Assembly (NCBI GenBank): GCA_023511535.1
Contig: JAIMBK010000003.1
Location: 25,471 to 89,470, forward strand
Direction: 5' to 3'
DNA length: 64,000 nucleotides
Origin: Armatimonadota bacterium
GTDB taxonomy: Bacteria > Bacillota > Desulfotomaculia > Desulfotomaculales > Nap2-2B
In this document: in pieces, positions 2,706 to 60,378 of the stretch
Layout: every line of letters begins with the position of its first letter
How positions within the stretch are numbered: position 1 is the stretch's first letter
Translations under genes and position numbers: made by a program
The notes under the pieces: generated by a model
Database searches by the model: none
Told to the model about the DNA's origin: nothing
The model's input: the letters and a program-made list of their open reading frames with translations, nothing else

Positions 2706-3341
2706 ATGCTTGGTGGACAACCGCGTAAAGTAGCGATTATCGGCGGCCCGGGCACGGGGAAAACCACCTTGATTAAACAACTGGACGTAGATTACAGCAT
2801 GGCCGGTTACATTACCGACGTGGCCCTGGAATTTGCCCGCAGCTACATCGTCAGGTACGGCGTTCCGACGTCCATTTTTGAACAGTTTTTGCTCTACGAG
2901 GGGCAAAAGCAGCGCGAGGAAGAATTGCGGCACTGCGACATCATTTTTTGCGACAACGCCACAATTTTAAACTATGTATACGGACTGATGTGCTGCGATT
3001 TTAAAAACCCCAAGGAAGTGTACGCGCTGATGAAATTGTACGAATGGGCCATGAAGGATTTGCCCGGCTATGATATTTTTTACGTCCCCCGGGAATTTGC
3101 CCTGGAGAAAGACGGGGTGCGCTACCAGGACGAAGAGTTCGCCGTGGTCGTAGACACGAAGATCAAAAATTTTTTAGATATCATGAATGTGCCGTATACT
3201 ATAGTCAAAGGGGACTTGCCCGCCAGGGTGAAGACAGTCAAGGAGAAGCTGGGTTTTGTGGAGAAGCGGAGGAAAATGATCTGTTTACTGGAAGGAGAAG
3301 AAGGTACACCGGCCGGGCAGGAGACCGGATCAGGTCAATAG
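2706..3341 (+). CDS. P-loop NTPase (AAA_28 / NadR-like kinase-type ATPase), function unknown
   Basis: N-terminal Walker A IIGGPGTGKTTL. About 210 aa, AT-richer codon usage than neighbours, purine-rich RBS region upstream. Confidence 0.6.
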   Translation: MLGGQPRKVAIIGGPGTGKTTLIKQLDVDYSMAGYITDVALEFARSYIVRYGVPTSIFEQFLLYEGQKQREEELRHCDIIFCDNATILNYVYGLMCCDFKNPKEVYALMKLYEWAMKDLPGYDIFYVPREFALEKDGVRYQDEEFAVVVDTKIKNFLDIMNVPYTIVKGDLPARVKTVKEKLGFVEKRRKMICLLEGEEGTPAGQETGSGQ

Positions 3342-3420
3342 GAACGGGATCATTTCCATCTTAACAATGAAGATAGAGTGCTGGATTAGTCTGGGCGGGT
3401 GACAGAAAAGGGGTTCTCAC

Positions 3421-3456
3421 TAATTCCCATCCCCAACCCCTAACCCCTAATCCCTG
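3421..3456 (+). repeat. Heptamer tract (YAAYYCC)n-TG, copy H1, 5' of rlmD-like gene
   Basis: TAATTCC CATCCCC AACCCC TAACCCC TAATCCC TG, ending 15 nt before ATG 3471. Confidence 0.85.
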
Positions 3457-3470
3457 ATCTGCCGGGGTGG

Positions 3471-4694
3471 ATGATGAATCAGCGTGAATTTGAACTGGAA
3501 ATAACCGAAATGGCCCACCGGGGAGAGGCGGTGGGCAGGCTGAACGGCAAAGTTGTTTTTGTACCCTTCGCCATACCCGGGGAAGTGGTCCTGGTCAGGC
3601 CGCGCCTGGAAAAGAAAGATTACCTCGAAGCGGAGATTGTGGAAATCCGCAAGCCCTCGCCGCACCGGATTGAAGGGGCCTGCGCCGGTTTTGGCCGCTG
3701 CGGGGGCTGCAACTGGCAGCATATCGAGTACGGCTACCAGCTGGAGCTGAAAAGGCAGGTGGTCGAAGACCAGTTGCGGCGCGTGGGCAAGATCGCCAAT
3801 CCCGTGGTAAAGCCGGTTCTTCCCGCCGTCCGGCAGTGGCATTACCGCAACCGCGGTGATTTTTCGGTAAACAAGGAAGGATACCTGGGCTTCCGGATGC
3901 GGGGGACGCATAAATTCGTTCCCGTGCAGGACTGCCGCCTGATGCATCCGCAGATCAACGAGCTGCTTTCCCGGCTCCAGGGAAAATGTACCCGGAGCGC
4001 CGCCCGGAAGACACACAACGTCTGCCTCCGGTACGGCGTGCACACCGGGGAATGGTTAATCCAGCCCTTCCTGGATTTGCCGGACGTCCCGACCGGCCAG
4101 CCCTTTTACCGGGAAAAGCTGCTCGATCACCTCTTTGTTATTTCCGCGGCTTCTTTCTTTCAGGTTAATACCCTGCAGGCCGAGAAATTAATTGCCGTTG
4201 TGGAAGAATTCGTCCGTCCCACCGGGGAGGAAGTGCTGGTGGATGCCTACGCCGGGGTGGGGACGTTTGCTAAAGCCCTGGCGGGAAAAGTCCGCCGGGT
4301 AATCGCGGTGGAGGAGGCGAAGTCGGCGGTAAAAGACGCCGCGGTAAACCTGGAGGGGTTTGCCAATGTCCGGTATTACAAGGCGAAAACGGAAGATTTC
4401 CTGGGACAAATGACCGAAAGGGTGGATGTGGTGATCCTGGACCCGCCCCGGGCCGGTTGTTTCCGTCCGGCGCTGGAAGCCCTGGTGCGGCTCGCCCCGG
4501 CGAAGGTGGTTTACGTCTCCTGCGATCCCGCCACCCTGGCCCGGGATCTTGCCTTCCTGGTCGAAAACGGCTATACCCTCGGCGAAGTCCAGCCCGTGGA
4601 CATGTTTCCCCAGACCTACCACATCGAGTGCGTAGTTTCCATCGAAAGAAAACACAGTATTAATGGCAAGGGTTTGAGGTACTTTGGGAGTTAA
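3471..4694 (+). CDS. 23S rRNA (uracil-5)-methyltransferase, RumA/RlmD family (TRAM + Fe-S + SAM-MTase)
   Basis: N-terminal TRAM-like segment, Cys cluster CAGFGRCGGCNWQH, SAM motif VDAYAGVGTF, and C-terminal VYVSCDPATLARD typical of the RumA family. Confidence 0.85.
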   Translation: MMNQREFELEITEMAHRGEAVGRLNGKVVFVPFAIPGEVVLVRPRLEKKDYLEAEIVEIRKPSPHRIEGACAGFGRCGGCNWQHIEYGYQLELKRQVVEDQLRRVGKIANPVVKPVLPAVRQWHYRNRGDFSVNKEGYLGFRMRGTHKFVPVQDCRLMHPQINELLSRLQGKCTRSAARKTHNVCLRYGVHTGEWLIQPFLDLPDVPTGQPFYREKLLDHLFVISAASFFQVNTLQAEKLIAVVEEFVRPTGEEVLVDAYAGVGTFAKALAGKVRRVIAVEEAKSAVKDAAVNLEGFANVRYYKAKTEDFLGQMTERVDVVILDPPRAGCFRPALEALVRLAPAKVVYVSCDPATLARDLAFLVENGYTLGEVQPVDMFPQTYHIECVVSIERKHSINGKGLRYFGS

Positions 4695-4765: not shown

Positions 4766-5338
4766 TTACATTGCGCGAAAAACGTTAAAGGTCTGTTCTG
4801 GTAAAAAATCATATCTCTCAACCAGGACGTATCCGGCATTTTTCATGGTTTCTTGAATAAACGCCTCTTCAGCATAATGCCCTATCAAGGCAATTACATT
4901 TAGTGTCTTGCGCTTCTTATAATCAATGACAACAACCCTGCCTCCAGGCTTTAGAAAACATTTCAGGGTCTTAAAATAATGTTCTGGTTGATTTAAATGA
5001 TGAAAAACATTTCTCAAAAAAATTAGGTCACAGCCCTCTTTTGGCAAGTTTAATCCGTTTTTATCAATCAATACGGTTTCCACGTTTGTTATTTGATTCT
5101 TCTTAGCGTAATTCTTAACATAAGCCAAAAGCCGGGCATTGGTGTCGACAGCAAATACCCTGCCATTCAATCCCACTGTTTTAGCAAAACGTATTGTAAA
5201 ATAACCTCCACCAGAGCCAATATCTGCAACTACCGCCCCTTTTTGAAGTGAAAGAACTTCGATAATCTCATCCGCCTTGAATTTCGGATGGCTCGCCCTG
5301 CGATTCAACATTTCTGCCCTCTTAAATATAAATAGCAT
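4766..5338 (-). CDS. Class I SAM-dependent methyltransferase (small, stand-alone)
   Basis: Motif I VADIGSGGGYFT and a Methyltransf_11-like layout. Visibly AT-rich compared with flanking genes. Confidence 0.75.
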   Translation of the reverse strand: MLFIFKRAEMLNRRASHPKFKADEIIEVLSLQKGAVVADIGSGGGYFTIRFAKTVGLNGRVFAVDTNARLLAYVKNYAKKNQITNVETVLIDKNGLNLPKEGCDLIFLRNVFHHLNQPEHYFKTLKCFLKPGGRVVVIDYKKRKTLNVIALIGHYAEEAFIQETMKNAGYVLVERYDFLPEQTFNVFRAM

Positions 5339-5472
5339 CTCGTTATCTCCCCGGTTACGTATATTGGTTGTGAGCGGTTATCCAGACTCGGCTGGCCGGG
5401 TTGAAAAGGGTCTCCTTGAAAAGAACCTTAAAAAGCTCCAAAGGAGTCTAAGAACATGCGGCTCAAACCTTT

Positions 5473-7479
5473 TTACCCGCTACCGACAGGTTTCCCGCAG
5501 CACTTTTTATACTTTTTTCCACTGCCGCACGGGCAGGGATCATTCCGGCCGATCTTCGGAGGTTTGACGATCGGCTTTAGCGGCGGGTGATCGGCCCACT
5601 CTTCGTCATCATCTTCTTCTTCATCGAATAACGGGGCGGATTCTTCCCAGCCCTCCTCGTCCTCATCCGGGAGCCATTCCGGTTCGTCATCGGGGTCAGC
5701 GTCGAACAGGTCCGGAAAGCGGGTATGTAATTTATATAATTCTTGATCGAACTTACTGGTCCTTATCCTTTCCACCTCTTTTTTCAGTTCGGCCATTTCC
5801 GGAAAAGAAATCCCGTTGTTTTCCCCGAGCTCGACGAGAGCGACTTGCGCCGCTTCGACAACTTCTTCGTCTTCGTCGGCGAGAAGGCGCCGGATCTGGA
5901 AAATGGCCGCCGGATCGCCGTATTCCTGGAGATGCTCCAGGGCGGCCCGCCTGATTTCCGGATTGGCGTCTTCAAGCTGGCCCAAAAGAAAGGATAACGA
6001 CCTGGGATGACGGATTTTAGCCAGGGCGCCGCCGACCGAGATAATGTTTTGCCAGGAACCGGTGTTTGTCCAGGCTTGAATTTTCTTGAGGGCGGGTTCG
6101 ATTACTTTTTCCCCGCAGAAGGCCAGGGCATCCTGGATTGTGTGCAGCATCAGTTCCCCGTCTTCGTCTTCCGGATCAACATCCGGAATAACCTCCAGCA
6201 AAGCTTCTACGGCGCCGGGCGTGTTGATTTCCCCCAGGGCCTCGGCGGCCCAGAAACCGGCCTGGCTTCCCGGATATTTTTTCAGGACCGATTTTAACGG
6301 GTTAACTGCCGGATCACCGTAGCCGATGATTTTTTTGAGCAAGAAACGGGGTTTTACCGTGCTTGTAATGATCATTTGGGTAATCAGGGCGGCTAAATCG
6401 TCTGCTTTGCCGGCAGCGGCACCCGGGTTTCTTTTTTCGAAGATCCGGTTAAGTTCTTCCCAGGTGGCGGAGGTGCAGAAAACAGCCAGCTCAAGGTCCC
6501 GGCCGGTATACTTTTCCCTTGTTATTAGTTTTTTCTGGCTTAAGAAACTAAAGGTCGTGATGATTGCCCCGAGCCTGGTATCAATCAGTTTTTGCAGAAT
6601 TCTATCTTCGTCGTGGAAATCGCTCTCCTCCAAAATTCCGGCCGCTTCCAGAACGGCATAGCTGGTCAGGAGCAGGGCTTCCGCGAGGGATTCGTAAAAA
6701 CGCCGGAAGGATTTTTTCTGCAGGGCCTGCAGAGCTGATTTATAGATCTTTTTCAATTCGGGCGGCGCTTCGGCGATCTCTTCATTCACCAGGGAAGAGA
6801 AGAATTCCGTGGCGTCAGCGAGATCTATTTCCCCCTCCTGAAAAAATTCCGGCTTTCCCAGCAGGGAAGCCAGGCATCTGGTTAAGTCGTCCCGGTAAAA
6901 ATCATCGTCCAGGCGATAATATAATTCAATGATCTGCGGCATCGCCCGGTAGCATTGCAATTCGGCCAGCGCTTCGGCGCAGGCGACCTCCTCGTCTGGA
7001 TTTTCTGCTTCCGCCAGAAAGGAAAGCAGTTCTTTTTCCAGACCCTGCTCCGGAAACGCCCCCAGCGCCAGCAAAACCTCCTCCCGGCCGGGGAAGGCGG
7101 GATCGCGGGCGGCCGCGCGCAAGGCCGGAAAAGCTTCCCGGAATCCCAGGTCACCCAGAATGCCGGCCGCTTCCGGGCTCAGCAGATCGTGTTTTTGGTT
7201 CAGGATGGCGATCAGTTTGGGAACGCATCCTTCGTCTCTCAGCCACCGCAAAGAATCCATGGCGCCTAACGCGACCAGGGGATCGCTGTCCCGAAGGGCC
7301 GTTTCCAGGGGGGCCAGCGCCGGGCGGCCGAAATAGCGGAGCTGGAACGCGGCGTGGCGCCTTACCTTTACCTCCGGGCTGGTCAGGTCGCGGGCATAAT
7401 CCTGAACACCTTTCAATTTAACAACCCCTTGTACATTCAATTCCCCCATCCGTTCTGAACACCGGAAGGGAGTGTCCAA
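5473..7479 (-). CDS. HEAT-repeat protein with acidic linker and C-terminal SEC-C zinc motif
   Basis: Repeated HEAT/PBS-lyase-like helices, an acidic D/E run, and terminal [19 protein letters not shown] (SEC-C motif). Start is uncertain: TTG 7479 or ATG 7449. Confidence 0.7.
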
Positions 7480-7654
7480 CCTTAATTAGTTGTTGTCAAT
7501 TATACCATTTCAGGAGAGAAATAACTATCCTCCGGGTTATTTATTTTGATAAATTTTTTATATTGTCCTGCTTTGTTTAAAAAATTTTCCCGGGCAGGAA
7601 GTCTGCCGCTGGTTGTTGAACTATTTAATTAAGCAAAAGAAAGGAGAAGCAACT

Positions 7655-8953
7655 GTGTATTGGGACCGTGAGAATGAAACCATGCCCCGGGAGCAGCTGC
7701 AGGCGCTCCAGCTGGAACGGCTCCGGCTGACCATCGAGCGGGTTTACCGGAACGTCCCTTTTTATCGCGAAAGATTTACCAAAGCGGGTATTAAGCCTTC
7801 TTCCGTCCGTTCTTTAGAGGACTTGCGCCGCCTGCCGTTTACCACCAAGCAGGATCTGCGGGACAACTATCCTTTCGGCCTGTTCGCCGTCTCCATGAGC
7901 GATGTGGTGCGCGTCCACGCTTCCTCGGGCACCACGGGCAAACCCACCGTGGTGGGCTACACAAAAAATGATATCAACACGTGGGCGGAGCTCGCCGCCC
8001 GGTCGCTGGCCTGCGCCGGCGGCACCAAATTTGACGTGGTGCAAAATGCCTATGGGTACGGTTTGTTTACCGGCGGGCTGGGCCTGCATTACGGCGCCGA
8101 AAGGCTGGGTGCGGCGGTGGTGCCGGTTTCCGGGGGGAACACCCGGCGCCAGCTGATGCTTATGCAGGACTTCGGTACCACCATTCTCACCTGCACACCT
8201 TCCTACGCCCTCTATCTGGCGGAGGAAGGGCAGAAAATGGGCCTGGATTTTAAAAAAATGCCTTTAAAGGCCGGGATTTTCGGGGCCGAGCCCTGGTCGG
8301 AGCGGATGCGCCGGCAGCTGGAAGAAAAACTGGATCTGGTGGCGCTGGATATTTACGGGTTGTCCGAAATTATGGGTCCGGGCGTGGCCATGGAGTGTCC
8401 GGCTAAAGAGGGCATGCACATTTTCGAGGACCACTTTATCCCGGAAATTATCGATCCCGACACGGGAGAAGTGCTTCCTGCAGGAAGCGAAGGGGAACTG
8501 GTTATTACTACCATAACGAAAGAAGCTTTTCCCCTCATCCGCTACCGTACCCGGGACATTACCCGGTTCAACCCGGAGCCTTGCCCCTGCGGCCGCACGC
8601 ACCTGCGCATCCGGCGGATTACCGGCCGCACCGACGATATGCTGATCATCCGCGGCGTAAACGTGTTTCCCTCCCAGGTGGAAAGCGTCCTGCTGGAGTC
8701 CGGCGAAACCGAACCCCACTATCTTTTGGTGGTGGACCGCAAGGGCAATTTAGATCAGCTTGAAATCTGGGTGGAGGTGGGGGAAGAACTGTTCAGCGAT
8801 AAGGTCCGCCAGCTGGAGGACCTGGAACAGCGCCTGCGGGAGCGCATCGAAAGCGTGCTGGGGATTTCCGCCCGGGTGAGGCTGGTCGAGCCCAACACCA
8901 TCCCCCGCAGCGAGGGCAAGGCCAGGCGGGTAGTGGACCGGCGGGAAATATAA
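7655..8953 (+). CDS. paaK: Phenylacetate--CoA ligase family protein (aryl-acid CoA ligase)
   Basis: N-terminus [25 protein letters not shown] motif [10 protein letters not shown]-terminal [17 protein letters not shown] 7655 follows RBS AAAGGAGAA. Confidence 0.9.
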
Positions 8954-50586: not shown

Positions 50587-50778
50587 TTAAACAGCCCGCT
50601 GCACCTTTCCGCTGCGCAGGCAGCGCGTGCAGACCAGGATTCTTTTCGGCGCGCCGTTGACGATTGCCTTTACCCGTTGCAAATTCGGCGTCCAGGTTCT
50701 TTTTGTCCGGATATGGGAATGGCTTACCTGCATGCCCACCCTGATTCCTTTTCCGCAAATGGCGCATTTTCTGGCCAA
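50587..50778 (-). CDS. rpmB: 50S ribosomal protein L28
   Basis: (M)ARKCAICGKG...SHSHIRTKRTWTPNLQRV. TTG 50778 lies 5 nt after GGAGGTG. Confidence 0.9.
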   Translation of the reverse strand: MARKCAICGKGIRVGMQVSHSHIRTKRTWTPNLQRVKAIVNGAPKRILVCTRCLRSGKVQRAV

Positions 50779-50799
50779 GAAAAACACCTCCTATAAAAA

Positions 50800-51178: not shown

Positions 51179-51421
51179 ATGGCCTTAGGGCAAAAACGGA
51201 ACACTTTAATTTTCCCGCAGGCTGCTGCCGCGATGGAGCAGTTCAAATGGGAAACCGCCCGCGAACTGGGCGTCCAGGTTCCGCAGGGAGGTTACATGGG
51301 TGATATTCCTTCCCGGGTCAACGGCGCCATCGGCGGCAACATGGTCAGAAAGATGATTGCCGCCTATGAGCAAAGCCTGGCTGCCGGTTCCCAGCCTCCG
51401 ACCCCGCAGGTAACCAGGTAG
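51179..51421 (+). CDS. Alpha/beta-type small acid-soluble spore protein
   Basis: FKWETARELGV...GGYMGDIPSRVNGAIGGNMVRKMI, the canonical SASP motif pair. RBS AAGGAGGTG. Confidence 0.9.
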   Translation: MALGQKRNTLIFPQAAAAMEQFKWETARELGVQVPQGGYMGDIPSRVNGAIGGNMVRKMIAAYEQSLAAGSQPPTPQVTR

Positions 51422-51655: not shown

Positions 51656-52639
51656 TTAGTGCAGATAAAAGTTGTATTCGTCGGGGGTCAGATTTGGGTG
51701 CAGGGCCATGGTTATTCCCCCTGCAACGATTTCAGCGGCCGTATGAATCAAGGTGTCAATTTCTTTGGGTGTTACCGTCAAGTTCCCGCCGAAAGGTTCC
51801 AGCACCCGGTTGATTACTTCCTGGGCCAAACCCGGACTCAATCTCTGAGAAAGCTGGTAGAGTTCGGGGCTTTTCCTTAGCTGCTCCAAAAAGCCGTCGA
51901 GAGTGTCCCGGGCAATCACGGCGGCGTGGGCCACCGTGGGAATCCCGAGGGCAATTACCGGCACCCCCATGGTTTCCCGGTTGATTCCCGCCCGCTGATT
52001 CCCAGTTCCCGACCCGGGGCTGATTCCCGTATCGGCGATCTGGATGGTGGTGCCGATCCGGCTGACGTTGCGGGCGGCCAGGGCGTCGATGGTGATGATC
52101 AGCTCCGGGCGGATTTTTTCCACCACGCCTTTAATGATTTCCGCTGTTTCGATTCCGGTAATGCCCAACACGCCCGGCGCCAGAGCGCTGACCGAACGCA
52201 TTCCTTCTTTTAACGCTTGCGGCGCGTAATTGAACAGGTGCCGCGTAACCACGGTCAGACTGCAGACTTTCGGCCCCAGGGAATCAGGAGTGGCCCGCCA
52301 GTTGCCCAGACCTACCACCAGGATATTAGAGTATTCCGGCAGTTTCACGAACGGTTCCAGGTGCCGGGCGAGGATTTCCGTAATTTCCTGGTGGGCGGGG
52401 GGGTTGTTTTCTCTGATGACGGGGGCTTCAATGGTGATGTAAGTGCCCACGGGTTTACCCATCAGCTTTTCGGCGTAAGGCTCCACTATTTTAACGATGG
52501 TTACTTCCGCATAATCGTATTTTTCCCGGTCCACCTGTACGCCGGGGACTTCCTGCTCCGTTTCTCCCCGGACGATTTCCCTCGCTTCCAGGGCCAGATC
52601 CAGATTGATGCCAAAAGCCCGGCAAAACTCTGTAAACAA
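51656..52639 (-). CDS. gpr: GPR endopeptidase (germination protease)
   Basis: 327 aa. DLALEAREI..., VVGLGNWRATPDSLGP..., DTGISPGSG. The protease that degrades SASPs. TTG start is uncertain. Confidence 0.85.
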   Translation of the reverse strand: MFTEFCRAFGINLDLALEAREIVRGETEQEVPGVQVDREKYDYAEVTIVKIVEPYAEKLMGKPVGTYITIEAPVIRENNPPAHQEITEILARHLEPFVKLPEYSNILVVGLGNWRATPDSLGPKVCSLTVVTRHLFNYAPQALKEGMRSVSALAPGVLGITGIETAEIIKGVVEKIRPELIITIDALAARNVSRIGTTIQIADTGISPGSGTGNQRAGINRETMGVPVIALGIPTVAHAAVIARDTLDGFLEQLRKSPELYQLSQRLSPGLAQEVINRVLEPFGGNLTVTPKEIDTLIHTAAEIVAGGITMALHPNLTPDEYNFYLH

Positions 52640-52899
52640 ATGGTTTTCCCCTTCCCAATTTCTCGTTAATAGCTTTTCCCGGACAAATTTATCTATACGT
52701 GAAAAAATCGATTTTTCGCTTGTATGTGTTTAAGATCCGGTTTTGAAAGAGGGGGTTCACCGCAACGCCGAACCTGGTATTGGCAAGGTGTAGAATATCC
52801 TTAAAGGCAAAATTTTACTTTGCAAAAGGAATGAGGAGGAAAACGTCGAATGGATATAATGACCAGGAACAGAAAAGTACAGGCAGGTGTGGATAAAGC

Positions 52900-53856
52900 A
52901 TGGAACCTACCTTATTTGATTCTCTGTTTTATGCCGAAGAAACTCAAAAGGAGAACACCATTGTTGTCGGTCCCCCGTCTTTACTTTCTAAAATCGATAA
53001 AGAAAAATCGTACATAATTACAGGAAACGCCCTGACAGCGTTAAAGCAATTGCCTGCTGACATCATCCAGACCTGCATTACCTCACCACCTTATTGGGGG
53101 CTTCGCGATTACGGCATCCCAGACCAGATCGGTACGGAAATGGACATCTCCGAATACCTGGATAAGCTGGTCAAGGTTTTCCGAGAGGTAAAGAGGGTCC
53201 TTAAACCCGAAGGCACTTTCTGGTTGAACATAGGCGATGGCTATACGAGCGGGGGGAGGACTTACCGTGCCCCCGACAAAAAAACCGACAACGGCCACAT
53301 CGTGCGCGGGCTGCCTTTCCGGCCTCCTACACCGGCCGGTTTAAAACCAAAGGATCTCCTGGGCCTGCCGTGGCGATTGGCTTTCTTGTTACAAGAAGAT
53401 GGCTGGTATTTAAGGGCAGATATTATCTGGTTTAAGCCTAACATACTACCTGAAAGCGTTAAAGACAGGCCGACCATCGCCCACGAATACGTCTTTTTGC
53501 TCACTAAAAACGAACGTTATTATTATGATTACCAGGCAATTCTTGAGCCAGCAGCTTCCGGTAAAGGTTACCGGAACAAGCGGTCGGTCTGGACCGTGAA
53601 TACCGAACCTTACCCGGAGGCCCATTTCGCGACCTTCCCCCCGGCCCTTGTCCTGCCCTGCATCCTGGCCGGGTCAAAACCAGGTGATCTCGTGCTTGAC
53701 CCCTTCCTGGGTTCGGGTACTACAGGGTTAGTGGCCCTGCAACAAAGGAGGTATTTTATCGGCATCGAACTAAACCCTGAATATTGTACGCTGGCCGAAA
53801 AAAGGCTAATTCCTTACGCCACGATCCTGAAAAACGAAACCGAAACGGAGGCTTGA
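52900..53856 (+). CDS. Beta-class amino DNA methyltransferase (SPPY type; probably N4-cytosine)
   Basis: Motif IV TSPPYWGLRDYG precedes motif I DPFLGSGTTG (beta-class order). ParB-less, about 318 aa. Confidence 0.85.
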   Translation: MEPTLFDSLFYAEETQKENTIVVGPPSLLSKIDKEKSYIITGNALTALKQLPADIIQTCITSPPYWGLRDYGIPDQIGTEMDISEYLDKLVKVFREVKRVLKPEGTFWLNIGDGYTSGGRTYRAPDKKTDNGHIVRGLPFRPPTPAGLKPKDLLGLPWRLAFLLQEDGWYLRADIIWFKPNILPESVKDRPTIAHEYVFLLTKNERYYYDYQAILEPAASGKGYRNKRSVWTVNTEPYPEAHFATFPPALVLPCILAGSKPGDLVLDPFLGSGTTGLVALQQRRYFIGIELNPEYCTLAEKRLIPYATILKNETETEA

Positions 53857-53859
53857 ATT

Positions 53860-54745
53860 GTGGAAACTTTGATTCCCACAAAACAAATGTGGGTAATCAG
53901 CCGCTTAAAGTCCGAGCGTGGAAAAATTCTGCGCGACGCCCTGAGAGAAGCCGTGGGAAAAGTAGGGGTCCAGATTATTGATCGTGAGCTTCACGATATG
54001 GTCAGTGCAGGCGCCCTCAATAAATTGGGCGCGTTCGGCCTGCGCGGAGAAGTCCTTTTTGCCGTACCCTGGCAAAAAAGGTCTGGGTAAGTGGGTTGAA
54101 ATTGAAAAAGGAAAAAGCGAAACTGTTTCGGAAAGCGAAATTCGGGACCTTTGCGCCGCTCTTATCGAGGCGGGAGAACGATTATTGAGCGCGATTAGCA
54201 GCAGGGATAATATCACCGAAGATTTTTTCCACGAACTTGCCCTGTTGACCCTGGGGGCACAATTGGACGGGAGTTACCGGGTAATCGTCGGCCAGAAGGC
54301 GGTAGCCGTTGTTCGGGAGTTAATCGAAAACATCGTTAAGCCAAAAAATCCAAGCGGTTTCCAGGAAAGGGAGAGCGAGATCGAATTCAACAACGCGGCG
54401 GGCCGGCGGGTGAAAATACGTTTCGGCTCCGACCCGGATATACTGGTTAGCGAGCGTTCCGGAAACCAATACCGGCACCTGCTAGCGATAGAAGTAAAAG
54501 GGGGCAGCGACCTTTCTAATATTCACAACAGGTTGGGCGAGGCTGAAAAGAGCCACTTAAAGTTGTCCGCAAGCGGCGTCCTCCGCTGGACTATCATAGG
54601 GGTTCCGGTTGACGAACAAACGGCCCGGATGCGCTCACCGAGTACAAACCGATTTTATGCGATTAGCACTTTGCTTATTGACGGAAGCCAGGAGTACGAA
54701 AGTTTTCGGCGGGAGTTGATTTCAATTCTGGGCCTTCCTGAATAA
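53860..54745 (+). pseudogene. PD-(D/E)xK type II restriction endonuclease candidate, split by a +1 frame change near 54061-54088
   Basis: GTG 53860 follows ACGGAGG, 3 nt after the MTase stop. Frame 1 stops at 54090, and the sequence continues in frame 2 to 54745. Catalytic-like DPDILV...LLAIEVKGG. An A6 run lies at 54074-54079. Confidence 0.55.
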
Positions 54746-54767
54746 ACACCAGTTTTCGCTTTATCCA

Positions 54768-54802
54768 AGCGTTGCTTCCAGGGACAACGCTATTTTTATT
54801 TT
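54768..54802 (+). terminator. Intrinsic terminator after the nuclease gene
   Basis: AGCGTTG / CAACGCT stem followed by ATTTTTATTTT. Confidence 0.75.
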
Positions 54803-54869
54803 AAGGCTATAAATCGATTTTTTTGTTTTTTTATGTTATAATGTCCCCAGCTAAAGGAAAGGAAAATTT

Positions 54870-55424
54870 ATGGTCAGAATTATTGCCGGCGCCTGCAAGG
54901 GGCGCCGCCTGAAAACCCCGCCCGACTGGCCGGGCCGCCCCACTGCCGACCGGGTAAAGGAGGCTCTGTTTAATATCCTGGCTCCCGTGCTCGCCGGGAG
55001 CAAATTTTTAGATCTTTTCGCCGGGAGCGGCAACGTGGGCATCGAGGCCTTAAGCCGCGGGGCGGAAGCGGCTTTTTTCGTGGAAAAAGACCGCCGGGCG
55101 GTAAAAACCATTTTTGAGAATCTCGCTGCCCTATCTTTAAGCGCCGGCGCGCGGGTACTGCCGGAAGATGTATTTACGGCCATCAAACGGCTGGCCAAAA
55201 AAGGAGAGCGTTTTCACCTTATTTTTCTCGATCCGCCCTACGAGCGGCATCTGGAGCAGCCTGTTTTAGAACAAATCGCCTGGTCCAATTTATTAGAACC
55301 GGGCGGGATAATTATCGTTGAAAGCAGTAAAAGAGAGGTGTTGCCCTCCAGAATTCACAATCTCGTCCTGGAGCGCCAGGAAAAATACGGCGATACCATG
55401 CTAACATTCTTCAGGGAGGGCTAG
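54870..55424 (+). CDS. rsmD: 16S rRNA (guanine966-N2)-methyltransferase
   Basis: RIIAGACKGRRLKTP...RPTADRVKEALFNIL...DPPY. Conserved rsmD-coaD pair. Confidence 0.9.
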   Translation: MVRIIAGACKGRRLKTPPDWPGRPTADRVKEALFNILAPVLAGSKFLDLFAGSGNVGIEALSRGAEAAFFVEKDRRAVKTIFENLAALSLSAGARVLPEDVFTAIKRLAKKGERFHLIFLDPPYERHLEQPVLEQIAWSNLLEPGGIIIVESSKREVLPSRIHNLVLERQEKYGDTMLTFFREG

Positions 55425-58991: not shown

Positions 58992-59163
58992 TGTCGTGTA
59001 TCTGTTATTTTACTTTGTAAAGGTAATTTTAAGGACAGATTAAAAAAAGCAGGTTAAGGAGGTGTGAGTTATCGATAGGTTGATGATTTGTCCGGGAAAG
59101 GGAGGATGAGTTGGAATTATTTTTTTGGTTTACCGGATAACTCGTTAAATGGGGGAGGACGTC

Positions 59164-60378
59164 ATGAAAAAAGGAGCACTGATCAATAAAATTGCCATCA
59201 TTATGCTGATTTTCCTGTTAAGCTGCCTGGTTTTAGGAGCAAGCGGCGTGGGTGCCCAAACACCCCAGGCAGGCCAACCGGCGGCAGATCAGGCCAAGGT
59301 GGTGGGCAGCGACCTGGGCCTGCAGGGAAAGCTGGGCGAAGCCATTGCCAAAGCCCCGGCCGGAACGGGGAAAGGGCAGATTAACCCGGACGCGCCCAGG
59401 GGAGCGTTCGGCATCCCCGGCGCACCGAAAATCAACTACCTTGTCGCCATCCTGTGGGCTGTTTGGGTCGGCTGGATCTTCTCCACGGTGGGCGCCTTTG
59501 GCGGGATTATGGCGGGCGTCGGGCACATGACCATTTTTGGGCTGGGCGATTACGCGAAGAGCTTTAAAAATACCGCACCCACTGTAAATAAACTGCTCAC
59601 CGACTCCATTCGCGCCTCGAACCAGTGGCTGGTCGGGTTGTCGTCCCTGTTAAGCACCATTAATTATCTGAAAGCGAAGCGTCTGGCCTGGCCTTTGGGG
59701 CTTGCGCTCGGTCTGGGTTCCATCGCGGGGGCCGTGGCCATTCCGGCACTTACGGGCGGAAAGATCAGTTTCAGCCAGTATCAGGGATGGTTCGGCCTCT
59801 GTGTTTTTGTTATCGGCGGCTTTTTGTTGTACGAAACCACCCCCCGCGGGCAGGCGGGAAAAAAGGCGGCCAAACAAGCGGCCCAGGCTTTTGAAAAAAG
59901 CGTGAAAGAGAAGAAGAACGAAGCGGAGCAGGGGATCGCCGTAAATAGCTGGGGTTTGACAAAAATCGATTTTTCCTTCTTCGGCGCGGAATTCAGCTTT
60001 AACCCGGTGTGGGCCTTCATCGGCGGCGTATTTATTGCTTCGCTTTCGGCTTTTCTGGGGATCGGCGGCGGCTTCCTGTACGTTCCGTACATGACCAGCA
60101 TCGTCGGCCTGCCTATGTTTGTAGTGGCGGGCACCTCGGCCATGGCTGTCTTTGTAAGTATGCTGACCAGTATCACCACCTACATTACGGTGGCCGGCGC
60201 CGCTATGGACTGGGCCCTAATCGGCGTAGGCGTCTTTATCGGTTCGATGATCGGCCCACGGACGCAAAAATATATTCCGGACGTTTGGCTCAAGCGTTTG
60301 TTTGTCGTCCTGGCGCTGTACGTCGGGCTGGGCTACTTCAGCAAAGGGTTCTTCGGACAATCCTGGGTGCCCATGTAA
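59164..60378 (+). CDS. TauE/SafE (TSUP) family permease with signal peptide and low-complexity N-terminal extension
   Basis: ATG 59164 follows GGGGGAGG. Signal-like MKKGALINKIAIIMLIFLLSCLVLGASG, an A/G/Q/P-rich roughly 70-aa segment, then a 4+4 TM TSUP core with a charged central loop. Confidence 0.75.
   Translation: MKKGALINKIAIIMLIFLLSCLVLGASGVGAQTPQAGQPAADQAKVVGSDLGLQGKLGEAIAKAPAGTGKGQINPDAPRGAFGIPGAPKINYLVAILWAVWVGWIFSTVGAFGGIMAGVGHMTIFGLGDYAKSFKNTAPTVNKLLTDSIRASNQWLVGLSSLLSTINYLKAKRLAWPLGLALGLGSIAGAVAIPALTGGKISFSQYQGWFGLCVFVIGGFLLYETTPRGQAGKKAAKQAAQAFEKSVKEKKNEAEQGIAVNSWGLTKIDFSFFGAEFSFNPVWAFIGGVFIASLSAFLGIGGGFLYVPYMTSIVGLPMFVVAGTSAMAVFVSMLTSITTYITVAGAAMDWALIGVGVFIGSMIGPRTQKYIPDVWLKRLFVVLALYVGLGYFSKGFFGQSWVPM

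Follow-up and report, generated by a model that had tools for sequence, protein, structure and literature searches.

A restriction-modification islet at a host promoter palindrome between gpr and rsmD, with a broken nuclease gene and the relic of a recombinase gene

In the 64-kb stretch of contig JAIMBK010000003.1 that was analyzed here and that is called the window throughout, a small restriction-modification (R-M) islet lies between gpr, encoding the germination protease, and the divergently oriented core gene rsmD, which is followed by coaD. The islet carries the remains of a recombinase gene (int), a gene for a DNA methyltransferase (M) and a gene for a restriction endonuclease (R), and it is bracketed by two exact copies of the 12-mer AAATCGATTTTT that enclose 2,094 bp (Table 1). 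An earlier note on this DNA, made by reading the sequence alone, had described a perfect 12-bp repeat around an AT-richer segment of about 2.1 kb and had considered such a match improbable by chance, and all of this is borne out. The GC content of the segment is 0.496 versus 0.565 for the rest of the window, which places it at the 2.6th percentile of 2.1-kb windows, and at third codon positions M and R show a GC content of 0.55–0.56, the neighbouring genes one of 0.60–0.67. When the two intergenic stretches (260 and 124 nt) were shuffled 20,000 times at the mononucleotide level, they had a word of at least 12 nt in common with P of about 0.003. The same reading had seen neither a transposase nor inverted terminal repeats, in agreement with the list of open reading frames (ORFs), the Pfam matches and an inverted-repeat search, which revealed that the insert encodes no transposase and that its ends have no inverted repeats other than the palindromic target. 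Of the terminator that had been ascribed to the islet, a hairpin (stem 54768–54774 with 54785–54791) and a following T-tract (54792–54802) do exist, but the terminator scan missed them and the hairpin is no more stable than shuffled sequence (z = -0.45). Promoter and terminator scans of the islet gave nothing exceeding background, and Rfam yielded no match within the islet, nor upstream of int in L093, one of the relative loci that are labelled L001 to L098 here.

Table 1. Features of the islet and its flanks, in coordinates of the window.
Feature	Position	Strand	Basis or comment
gpr (germination protease), left flanking core gene	51656..52639	-	PF03418, E=5.6e-94
Left target copy AAATCGATTTTT	52705..52716	.	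corresponds to the one copy at the L003 empty site
Inserted foreign segment	52717..54810	+	2,094 bp, GC 0.496; missing from L003, junctions identical in L001
Left inner end, ~40 nt	52717..52755	+	without significant similarity to the ends of other inserts or to int modules
int leader relic: position equivalent to the module's terminal hairpin, promoter region, GGAGG ribosome-binding site	52756..52849	+	alignments
int first 7 codons, MDIMTRN, ATGGATATAATGACCAGGAAC	52850..52870	+	remaining ~855-bp ORF and stop codon missing
Former int-M spacer	52871..52899	+	DNA homology to the P. thermopropionicum R-M unit begins here
M gene, beta-class DNA methyltransferase, 318 aa, intact	52900..53856	+	PF01555 N6_N4_Mtase, E=2.6e-54
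R pseudogene, N-terminal 70 codons	53860..54069	+	PF09571 positions 2-59, E=4.5e-20; alignment to intact homologues
R deletion site	54070	+	72 nt of L081 (6211-6282) replaced by 1 nt
R pseudogene, C-terminal part, +1 frame	54071..54745	+	PF09571 RE_XcyI positions 83-305, E=6.2e-103
Right inner end, 64 bp	54747-54810		contains the terminator-like hairpin
Terminator-like hairpin AGCGTTG / CAACGCT, then ATTTTTATTTT	54768..54802	+	read from sequence and fold
Right target copy	54811..54822	.	motif and spacing kept in 39/70 relatives with at most 1 mismatch
rsmD, right flanking core gene, coaD next	54870..55424	+	PF03602, E=1.1e-57; synteny

The two genes of the R-M unit are in very different condition. 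M is intact, its product has the same length as its partners in Pelotomaculum thermopropionicum (L081) and Thermodesulfitimonas autotrophica (L094), and its motifs TSPPYW and DPFLGSGTT follow the beta-class order, in which SPPY precedes FxGxG, so that the earlier assignment to the beta class of SPPY methyltransferases stands. Some homologues of M are labelled cytosine-N4-specific by their sources. The downstream gene had been read as a PD-(D/E)xK nuclease gene, and the family is confirmed by the PF09571 match and by a PD...EVK catalytic motif, but the gene is broken into two ORFs in different frames (53860–54090 and 53978–54745). Translation of R would begin at a GTG codon 3 nt past the M stop codon and run out of frame to a stop at 54088–54090, as the lesion is a net 71-bp frameshifting deletion that removes 24 codons (CLIKEKPxxSGYYRLVLGISQKEY) and with them positions 60–82 of the PF09571 profile. 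The catalytic motif is still encoded in the C-terminal fragment, to which the first third of the protein is no longer joined. Intact homologues have a length of 318 aa, and the window R is 81–83% identical to such 318-aa proteins. A second, independent deletion of 536 bp was found in R of the related locus L001; it also removes the stop codon of M, but M is intact there and has acquired a slightly longer tail.

Judged by its protein families, the cargo is a predicted XcyI/Cfr9I-type (CCCGGG) Type II system. XcyI and Cfr9I cleave C^CCGGG and their methyltransferases produce C-m4C-CGGG (PMC1920265; PMC8557920). M presumably makes m4C in CCCGGG, the recognition site and the methylated base being those expected from family membership and the literature. 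As R is a pseudogene, the locus does not hold a working R-M pair, and it most likely acts as a solitary CCCGGG methyltransferase. An annotation should mark R as a pseudogene and treat M as a solitary methyltransferase. A public record lists the 228-aa C-terminal R fragment (protein P0012, 100% identical) as an "XcyI family restriction endonuclease" of an "Armatimonadetes bacterium" metagenome-assembled genome. Both the taxonomic label and the intact-gene call of this record look wrong, the label because the window contains the sporulation gene gpr and is most closely related to Desulfovirgula-like Bacillota. Look-ups of the exact sequences of gpr, M, P0012 and P0127 matched no record.

A genome scan with Gpr returned 80 loci, and in most of these gpr and rsmD are divergent neighbours separated by a spacer of 125–270 bp, so that their adjacency is the ancestral arrangement. 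By their host genes, the closest relatives fall into three lineages that are ~78% identical to one another, namely lineage A with the window and L001 (about 95% identical genome-wide), lineage B with L003 and L062 (94–97% identical) and lineage C with L004. The decisive locus is L003, whose Gpr protein is 86% identical to that of the window and whose gpr-rsmD spacer of 125 bp contains one single copy of the motif (TAAATCGATTTTTTTG) in the context ...CTATACGTAAAAATAAATCGATTTTTTTGTTTTCCTGTGTTATAATG.... The window sequences 52500–52716 and 54809–55000 can each be aligned to L003, where they have 14 bp in common (L003 2923–2936). The earlier note had proposed an insertion that left a target-site duplication or a recombination scar, and had suggested to look in relatives for an empty site with one 12-mer; L003 provides this site, with both flanks converging on its sole copy. 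The islet is therefore a true insertion with a duplicated target and, because both flanks overlap by 14 bp on L003, the 12-mer is the duplicated target or the attL/attR core. L001 contains the same islet with identical junctions, and the insertion is thus older than the divergence of the two. In L002, which is closest by Gpr (99% identical), the contig breaks off within codon 12 of gpr, on the side of the islet, which would fit a failure of the assembly at a variable or repeated stretch.

The duplicated sequence belongs to the host. Upstream of rsmD, the motif was found exactly in 18 of 70 relatives, with at most one mismatch in 39 and with at most two in 48, and in the form AAATCGATTTT(T) it is always located ~10 nt upstream of the extended -10 element (TGnTATAAT) in Desulfotomaculia, Thermincola and other groups. 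In the window, the right copy is in its native position upstream of the extended -10 of rsmD (TGTTATAAT, 54834–54842). Because of this fixed distance across relatives, the 12-mer is a conserved part of the rsmD-coaD promoter region that was host-derived and not brought by the element. Its conservation is far above that of a normal -35 region, and the motif could serve as an operator or as a specialised promoter element. Together with 52703–52704, the left copy forms the perfect 14-nt palindrome AAAAATCGATTTTT, and it is ~6 nt away from a block, TATAGC(T/A)TTTCCC...TCTATAC, which is conserved in all relatives and which we take, from what is known of Bacillus, to be a forespore-type gpr promoter. 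The insertion point lies between the gpr and rsmD promoters, and the rsmD context at the right copy is native. A third copy of the 12-mer, within the same 14-nt palindrome and preceded by TTGACA, is present at 59961–59974 in coding sequence, namely in the gene of a 409-aa membrane protein (59149–60378), in which it encodes ...TKIDFS...; this copy could be a chance occurrence or an internal regulatory site, and among the related loci recovered none extends over this part of the window.

While the earlier note had stated that no integrase is visible, this holds only for an intact gene, as the 5' end of such a gene, coding for a tyrosine recombinase, is left between 52789 and 52870. The counterpart is found in Desulfofundulus thermocisternus (L085), in which an intact int (3161–4015; start ATGGATATACTGACC, protein MDILTSF...) encoding a 284-aa XerC-like tyrosine recombinase is located directly upstream of M and R, and the window sequence 52789–52866 is 81% identical to L085 3100–3177. 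Between 52785 and 52786 the window has a 29-bp deletion, and L001 keeps these 29 nt of the leader. Intact int-M-R triads were identified in L085 and in T. autotrophica (L094; int at 5001–5867). An independent and near-precise deletion of the int ORF occurred in L087 (548–580), L088 and L089, leaving a mini-ORF of nine codons (MDILTPSRE*) before M, and repeated loss of the recombinase from int-M-R modules seems to be common. The M-R pair also exists without int: it is 87% DNA-identical to PTH_2668 and its methyltransferase in P. thermopropionicum, where the genomic context is another one and the unit adjoins Mrr and an insertion sequence, and further copies are located in a RepA_N context or in ordinary chromosomal neighbourhoods. 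The homology between R-M units always ends at the R stop codon, and no direct repeats of at least 10 bp were detected around M-R in L081, L087 and L090.

The recombinase family is large in thermophilic Bacillota, and the cargo next to its members varies. Five intact int modules (L085, L093, L094, L096 and L098) start at a hairpin of the form TTCRCAAAAYnnnnCTTTTGTG about 118 nt upstream of the ATG codon (TTCACAAAACGGCCCTTTTGTGAA; L085 3043–3066, L094 about 4885, L093 about 4882), the arms of 8–9 bp and the spacer of 5–6 nt having the geometry of a tyrosine-recombinase core site. The cargo linked to int consists of R-M genes in L085 and L094, of SLFN_AlbA_2 in L093 and of an SNF2/NOV_C set in L098, and on a plasmid of Ammonifex degensii the family is found beside AbiEi/AbiEii with toxin-antitoxin genes nearby. 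At L094 8153–10007, the int-M-R triad adjoins a large serine recombinase and a truncated sigma-70 region-2 gene, an arrangement reminiscent of a skin-like intervening element in a sporulation sigma factor gene. Scans of viral contigs with the recombinase, the R protein, the inner ends of the window insert and the end shared by L062 and L004 returned nothing useful.

The slot between gpr and rsmD was filled by other cargo in the sister lineages. L062 carries an insert of 2.2 kb with a BrnT/BrnA toxin-antitoxin pair and small ORFs without known identity, flanked by CGTAAAAATAAATCG--TTTTT (TAAATCG--TTTTT) on the left and CGACAAATTAAATCGATTTTT (TAAATCGATTTTT) on the right. In L004, the order is gpr, an insertion sequence, CGTAAAATTTAATCGATTTT, a 4.6-kb cargo encoding an alpha/beta hydrolase, PRiA4_ORF3 and Mut7-C, and CGTAAAAATAAATCGATTTTT, the flanking repeat comprising roughly 20 bp with two mismatches. 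At their left inner ends, the inserts of L062 and L004 have 33 of 36 nt in common (P<0.0005), though the host genes of the two are only ~78% identical. As these ends are alike and that of the window has no significant similarity to either, at least two kinds of element used the same target. Filling of the slot is recurrent and, in lineage B, recent, since L003 is empty yet 94–97% identical to L062. An apparent kinship of the left inner end of the window to the ends of L062, L004 and the L093 element, suggested by a MAFFT alignment, was dropped after shuffling (P=0.65, 0.015 and 0.56, respectively). The insertion sequence of L004 (about 5990–7945 in locus coordinates) encodes a 550-aa DDE_Tnp_1_6/DUF772 transposase, has terminal repeats GATTCCAGTGCAA / TTGCACTGAAATC and its own 12-bp target duplication ATCTATACGTAA, and is located a few bases from the same hotspot.

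Comparison with L001 dates the later history of the islet. Host genes of the window and L001 differ by 4.5–6%, the M region by 0.6%, and the sliding-window identity reaches 99–100% across 52.8–53.85 kb, which covers M and its leader. Because M is 99–100% identical while the surrounding genome is about 95% identical, the pattern indicates that the M region was exchanged recently by recombination between the two lineages. In the surviving 3' part of R, the divergence of the window from L001 is 3.6%, with 11 synonymous changes among 13, for which reason R was under constraint until recently and functional for most of that time. The lesions in R (71 bp for the window, 536 bp for L001) are both recent and independent.

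The account that probably holds overall is that an acquired R-M module inserted at the host palindrome with duplication of 12 bp and then decayed. The segment 52717–54810 entered horizontally and came to lie between the promoters of the divergent genes gpr and rsmD, at the very position of the conserved, AT-rich and palindromic promoter element. Its cargo is the degraded form of a module of three genes, an int for a XerC-like tyrosine recombinase, an M of the N4-cytosine type and an R of the XcyI/Cfr9I type (C^CCGGG). The int ORF was deleted down to its promoter, ribosome-binding site and seven codons, the relic promoter presumably driving M now, and R was inactivated by the frameshifting deletion with M staying intact. 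As to how the module entered, site-specific recombination by the tyrosine recombinase, between the palindrome and a matching core on a circular element, is the route that we favour tentatively, giving it somewhat less than an even chance. It is favoured by the int relic, the short palindromic target, the repeated use of this target and the conserved ends in two of the inserts. The 12-mers would then be the attL and attR cores, the reconstituted attP would read ...GGCTAT-AAATCGATTTTT-CGCTTG..., and the circular junction would read ...TTTTAAGGCTAT-AAATCGATTTTT-CGCTTGTATG....

Several observations weigh against this picture. The position equivalent to the terminal hairpin is 52756 in the window, 40 nt inside the repeat, so that the repeat does not abut the usual left end of the module, and no direct repeats of at least 10 bp were found around the intact int-M-R units of L085 and L094. 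The junction of the int deletion is apparently common to the copy in P. thermopropionicum, and the unit may already have been without int when it arrived at the gpr-rsmD site. Neither an int relic in the L062 and L004 inserts nor a further, intact int gene in the 64 kb of the window was found, and the inner ends of the window insert have no significant similarity to those of L062 and L004. A long residence of an active system would moreover be at odds with the host sequence, in which CCCGGG is frequent, with about one site per 830 bp, and shows no avoidance (77 sites observed versus 81 expected).

What the recombinase route leaves of the probability falls to routes independent of it, namely insertion by short homology or break repair and transposition in trans. 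The former, illegitimate recombination at short homology or double-strand-break repair without a dedicated recombinase, we consider unlikely but of appreciable weight. A circular or plasmid-derived fragment with a similar AT-rich stretch might have entered by a single Campbell-type crossover at the palindrome, or a staggered break at the cruciform-prone palindrome might have been filled in and ligated around foreign DNA, and either version would resemble the "insertion with target duplication" of R-M units without mobility genes. Such an origin would suit an insert that lacks an intact mobility gene and terminal inverted repeats, a target that is a perfect AT-rich palindrome, a repeat away from the usual end of the int module and a deletion of int that may precede arrival; the occurrence of the int family on a plasmid beside addiction modules makes a plasmid fragment a plausible donor, and R-M insertions with target duplication but no other mobile element form a recognised class (PMC2853133). 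The duplications of this class, however, vary in length and are much longer, the section concerned listing direct repeats of 45–49 bp (PMC2853133). Moreover, the use of the same 12–21 bp target by three cargos in three lineages argues for sequence-specific targeting, and the common conserved ends of two inserts are as expected of recombinase arm sites.

Transposition of a non-autonomous element by a DDE transposase acting in trans, with the 12-mers as a classical target-site duplication, is improbable. A duplication of 12 bp is inside the range of some insertion sequences, an insertion sequence with a DDE_Tnp_1_6 transposase and a 12-bp duplication of its own is found a few bases away in L004, and R-M units with inverted repeats and 8-bp duplications have been described (PMC2853133). 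On the other hand, the ends of the insert have no inverted repeats beyond the palindromic target, no transposase is encoded in it, and it is atypical for transposition that three inserts reuse the same target with duplications ranging from 12 to about 20 bp. Very improbable is a history without any insertion in this lineage, in which the filled slot would be ancestral, L003 would have been emptied by deletion between the repeats and cargos would have been swapped via the gpr and rsmD flanks. Recombination between direct repeats does leave exactly one copy, and the near identity of the M region between the window and L001 is a sign of recent exchange at this very place; yet in dozens of outgroup genomes, belonging to several genera, the slot is unfilled with one copy of the motif, which makes the empty state ancestral and an insertion necessary, and the window cargo has no end sequences in common with L062 and L004. 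Finally, that the 12-mers match by chance or as copies of a common regulatory motif, independently of the acquisition, has a probability close to nil, as the motif is indeed a widespread promoter element with a third copy in coding sequence 5 kb away, but the convergence of both flanks on one L003 copy with a 14-bp overlap, the shuffling result and the same duplication around other cargo in sister lineages effectively refute it.

The inserted module can be compared with several known systems. With the XcyI/Cfr9I/XmaI group of Type IIP systems it shares the match of R to RE_XcyI in both fragments, the PF01555 methyltransferase with SPPY, and a gene order in which M precedes R at a distance of 3 nt, an arrangement also seen in close homologues. 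It differs from them in that R is a pseudogene with 24 codons missing and its frame shifted, and in an identity of only about 40% to typical members outside this Bacillota group. Among mobile R-M units, Furuta, Abe and Kobayashi (2010) described units whose flanking direct repeats both correspond to one single copy in the genome of a relative, including a minimal unit of R, M and integrase in Xylella fastidiosa, and they kept a class of site-specific recombination apart from a class of long target duplications (PMC2853133). The window unit is likewise small, essentially made of R-M genes and an integrase homologue, and its repeats align to one copy at the empty L003 locus. Unlike these units, its target is an intergenic promoter palindrome and not a tRNA gene, its repeat is 12 bp versus about 45 bp long, and only a 5' relic is left of its integrase, which may have made the insertion. 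As to the long-duplication class of Nobusato and Furuta, the duplications of 12 bp here and of about 20 bp in L004 are shorter than the direct repeats of 45–49 bp tabulated for it, and the window unit has an int relic besides its R-M genes.

Decay of R that leaves a solitary methyltransferase behind is a familiar outcome. The locus agrees with it in that M is intact while R suffered independent inactivating deletions in the window and in L001, and it differs in that the decay is recent, the surviving part of R still showing a signature of purifying selection. The islet belongs to a well-documented kind, that of mobile R-M units which have direct repeats on both sides and are on their way to a solitary methyltransferase. 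As such, the locus is a natural and clean illustration of how a selfish R-M unit passes through its life cycle: it would have arrived between two core promoters without disrupting either and would have lost first its mobility gene and then its toxic nuclease, the remaining methyltransferase having spread recently between lineages that are about 95% identical genome-wide.

What goes beyond the routine is the deeply conserved promoter palindrome as a shared target of unrelated cargos in sister lineages. Like other core-gene integration hotspots, the gpr-rsmD slot holds an R-M unit, BrnT/BrnA, or the set of Mut7-C, PRiA4_ORF3 and hydrolase, or is empty; unlike them, it is set by one short duplicated motif and not by broad flanking homology (four lineages). 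A more far-reaching reading, which we regard as improbable, is that AAATCGATTTTT serves as a dedicated attachment site for small integrase-less defence or addiction cassettes (R-M, BrnT/BrnA and others) that are inserted and exchanged in trans by the widespread 284-aa XerC-like family, whose genes in other places head defence cargo such as R-M, SLFN/AlbA, SNF2-NOV_C and AbiE. If true, it would constitute an integron-like cassette slot in thermophilic Desulfotomaculia.

Two further ORFs near the left flank were identified from their translations only. The product of the 80-aa ORF at 51179–51421, adjoining gpr, resembles a small acid-soluble spore protein of the alpha/beta type, which is the substrate of Gpr, and that of the 66-aa ORF at 50587–50787 resembles ribosomal protein L28.

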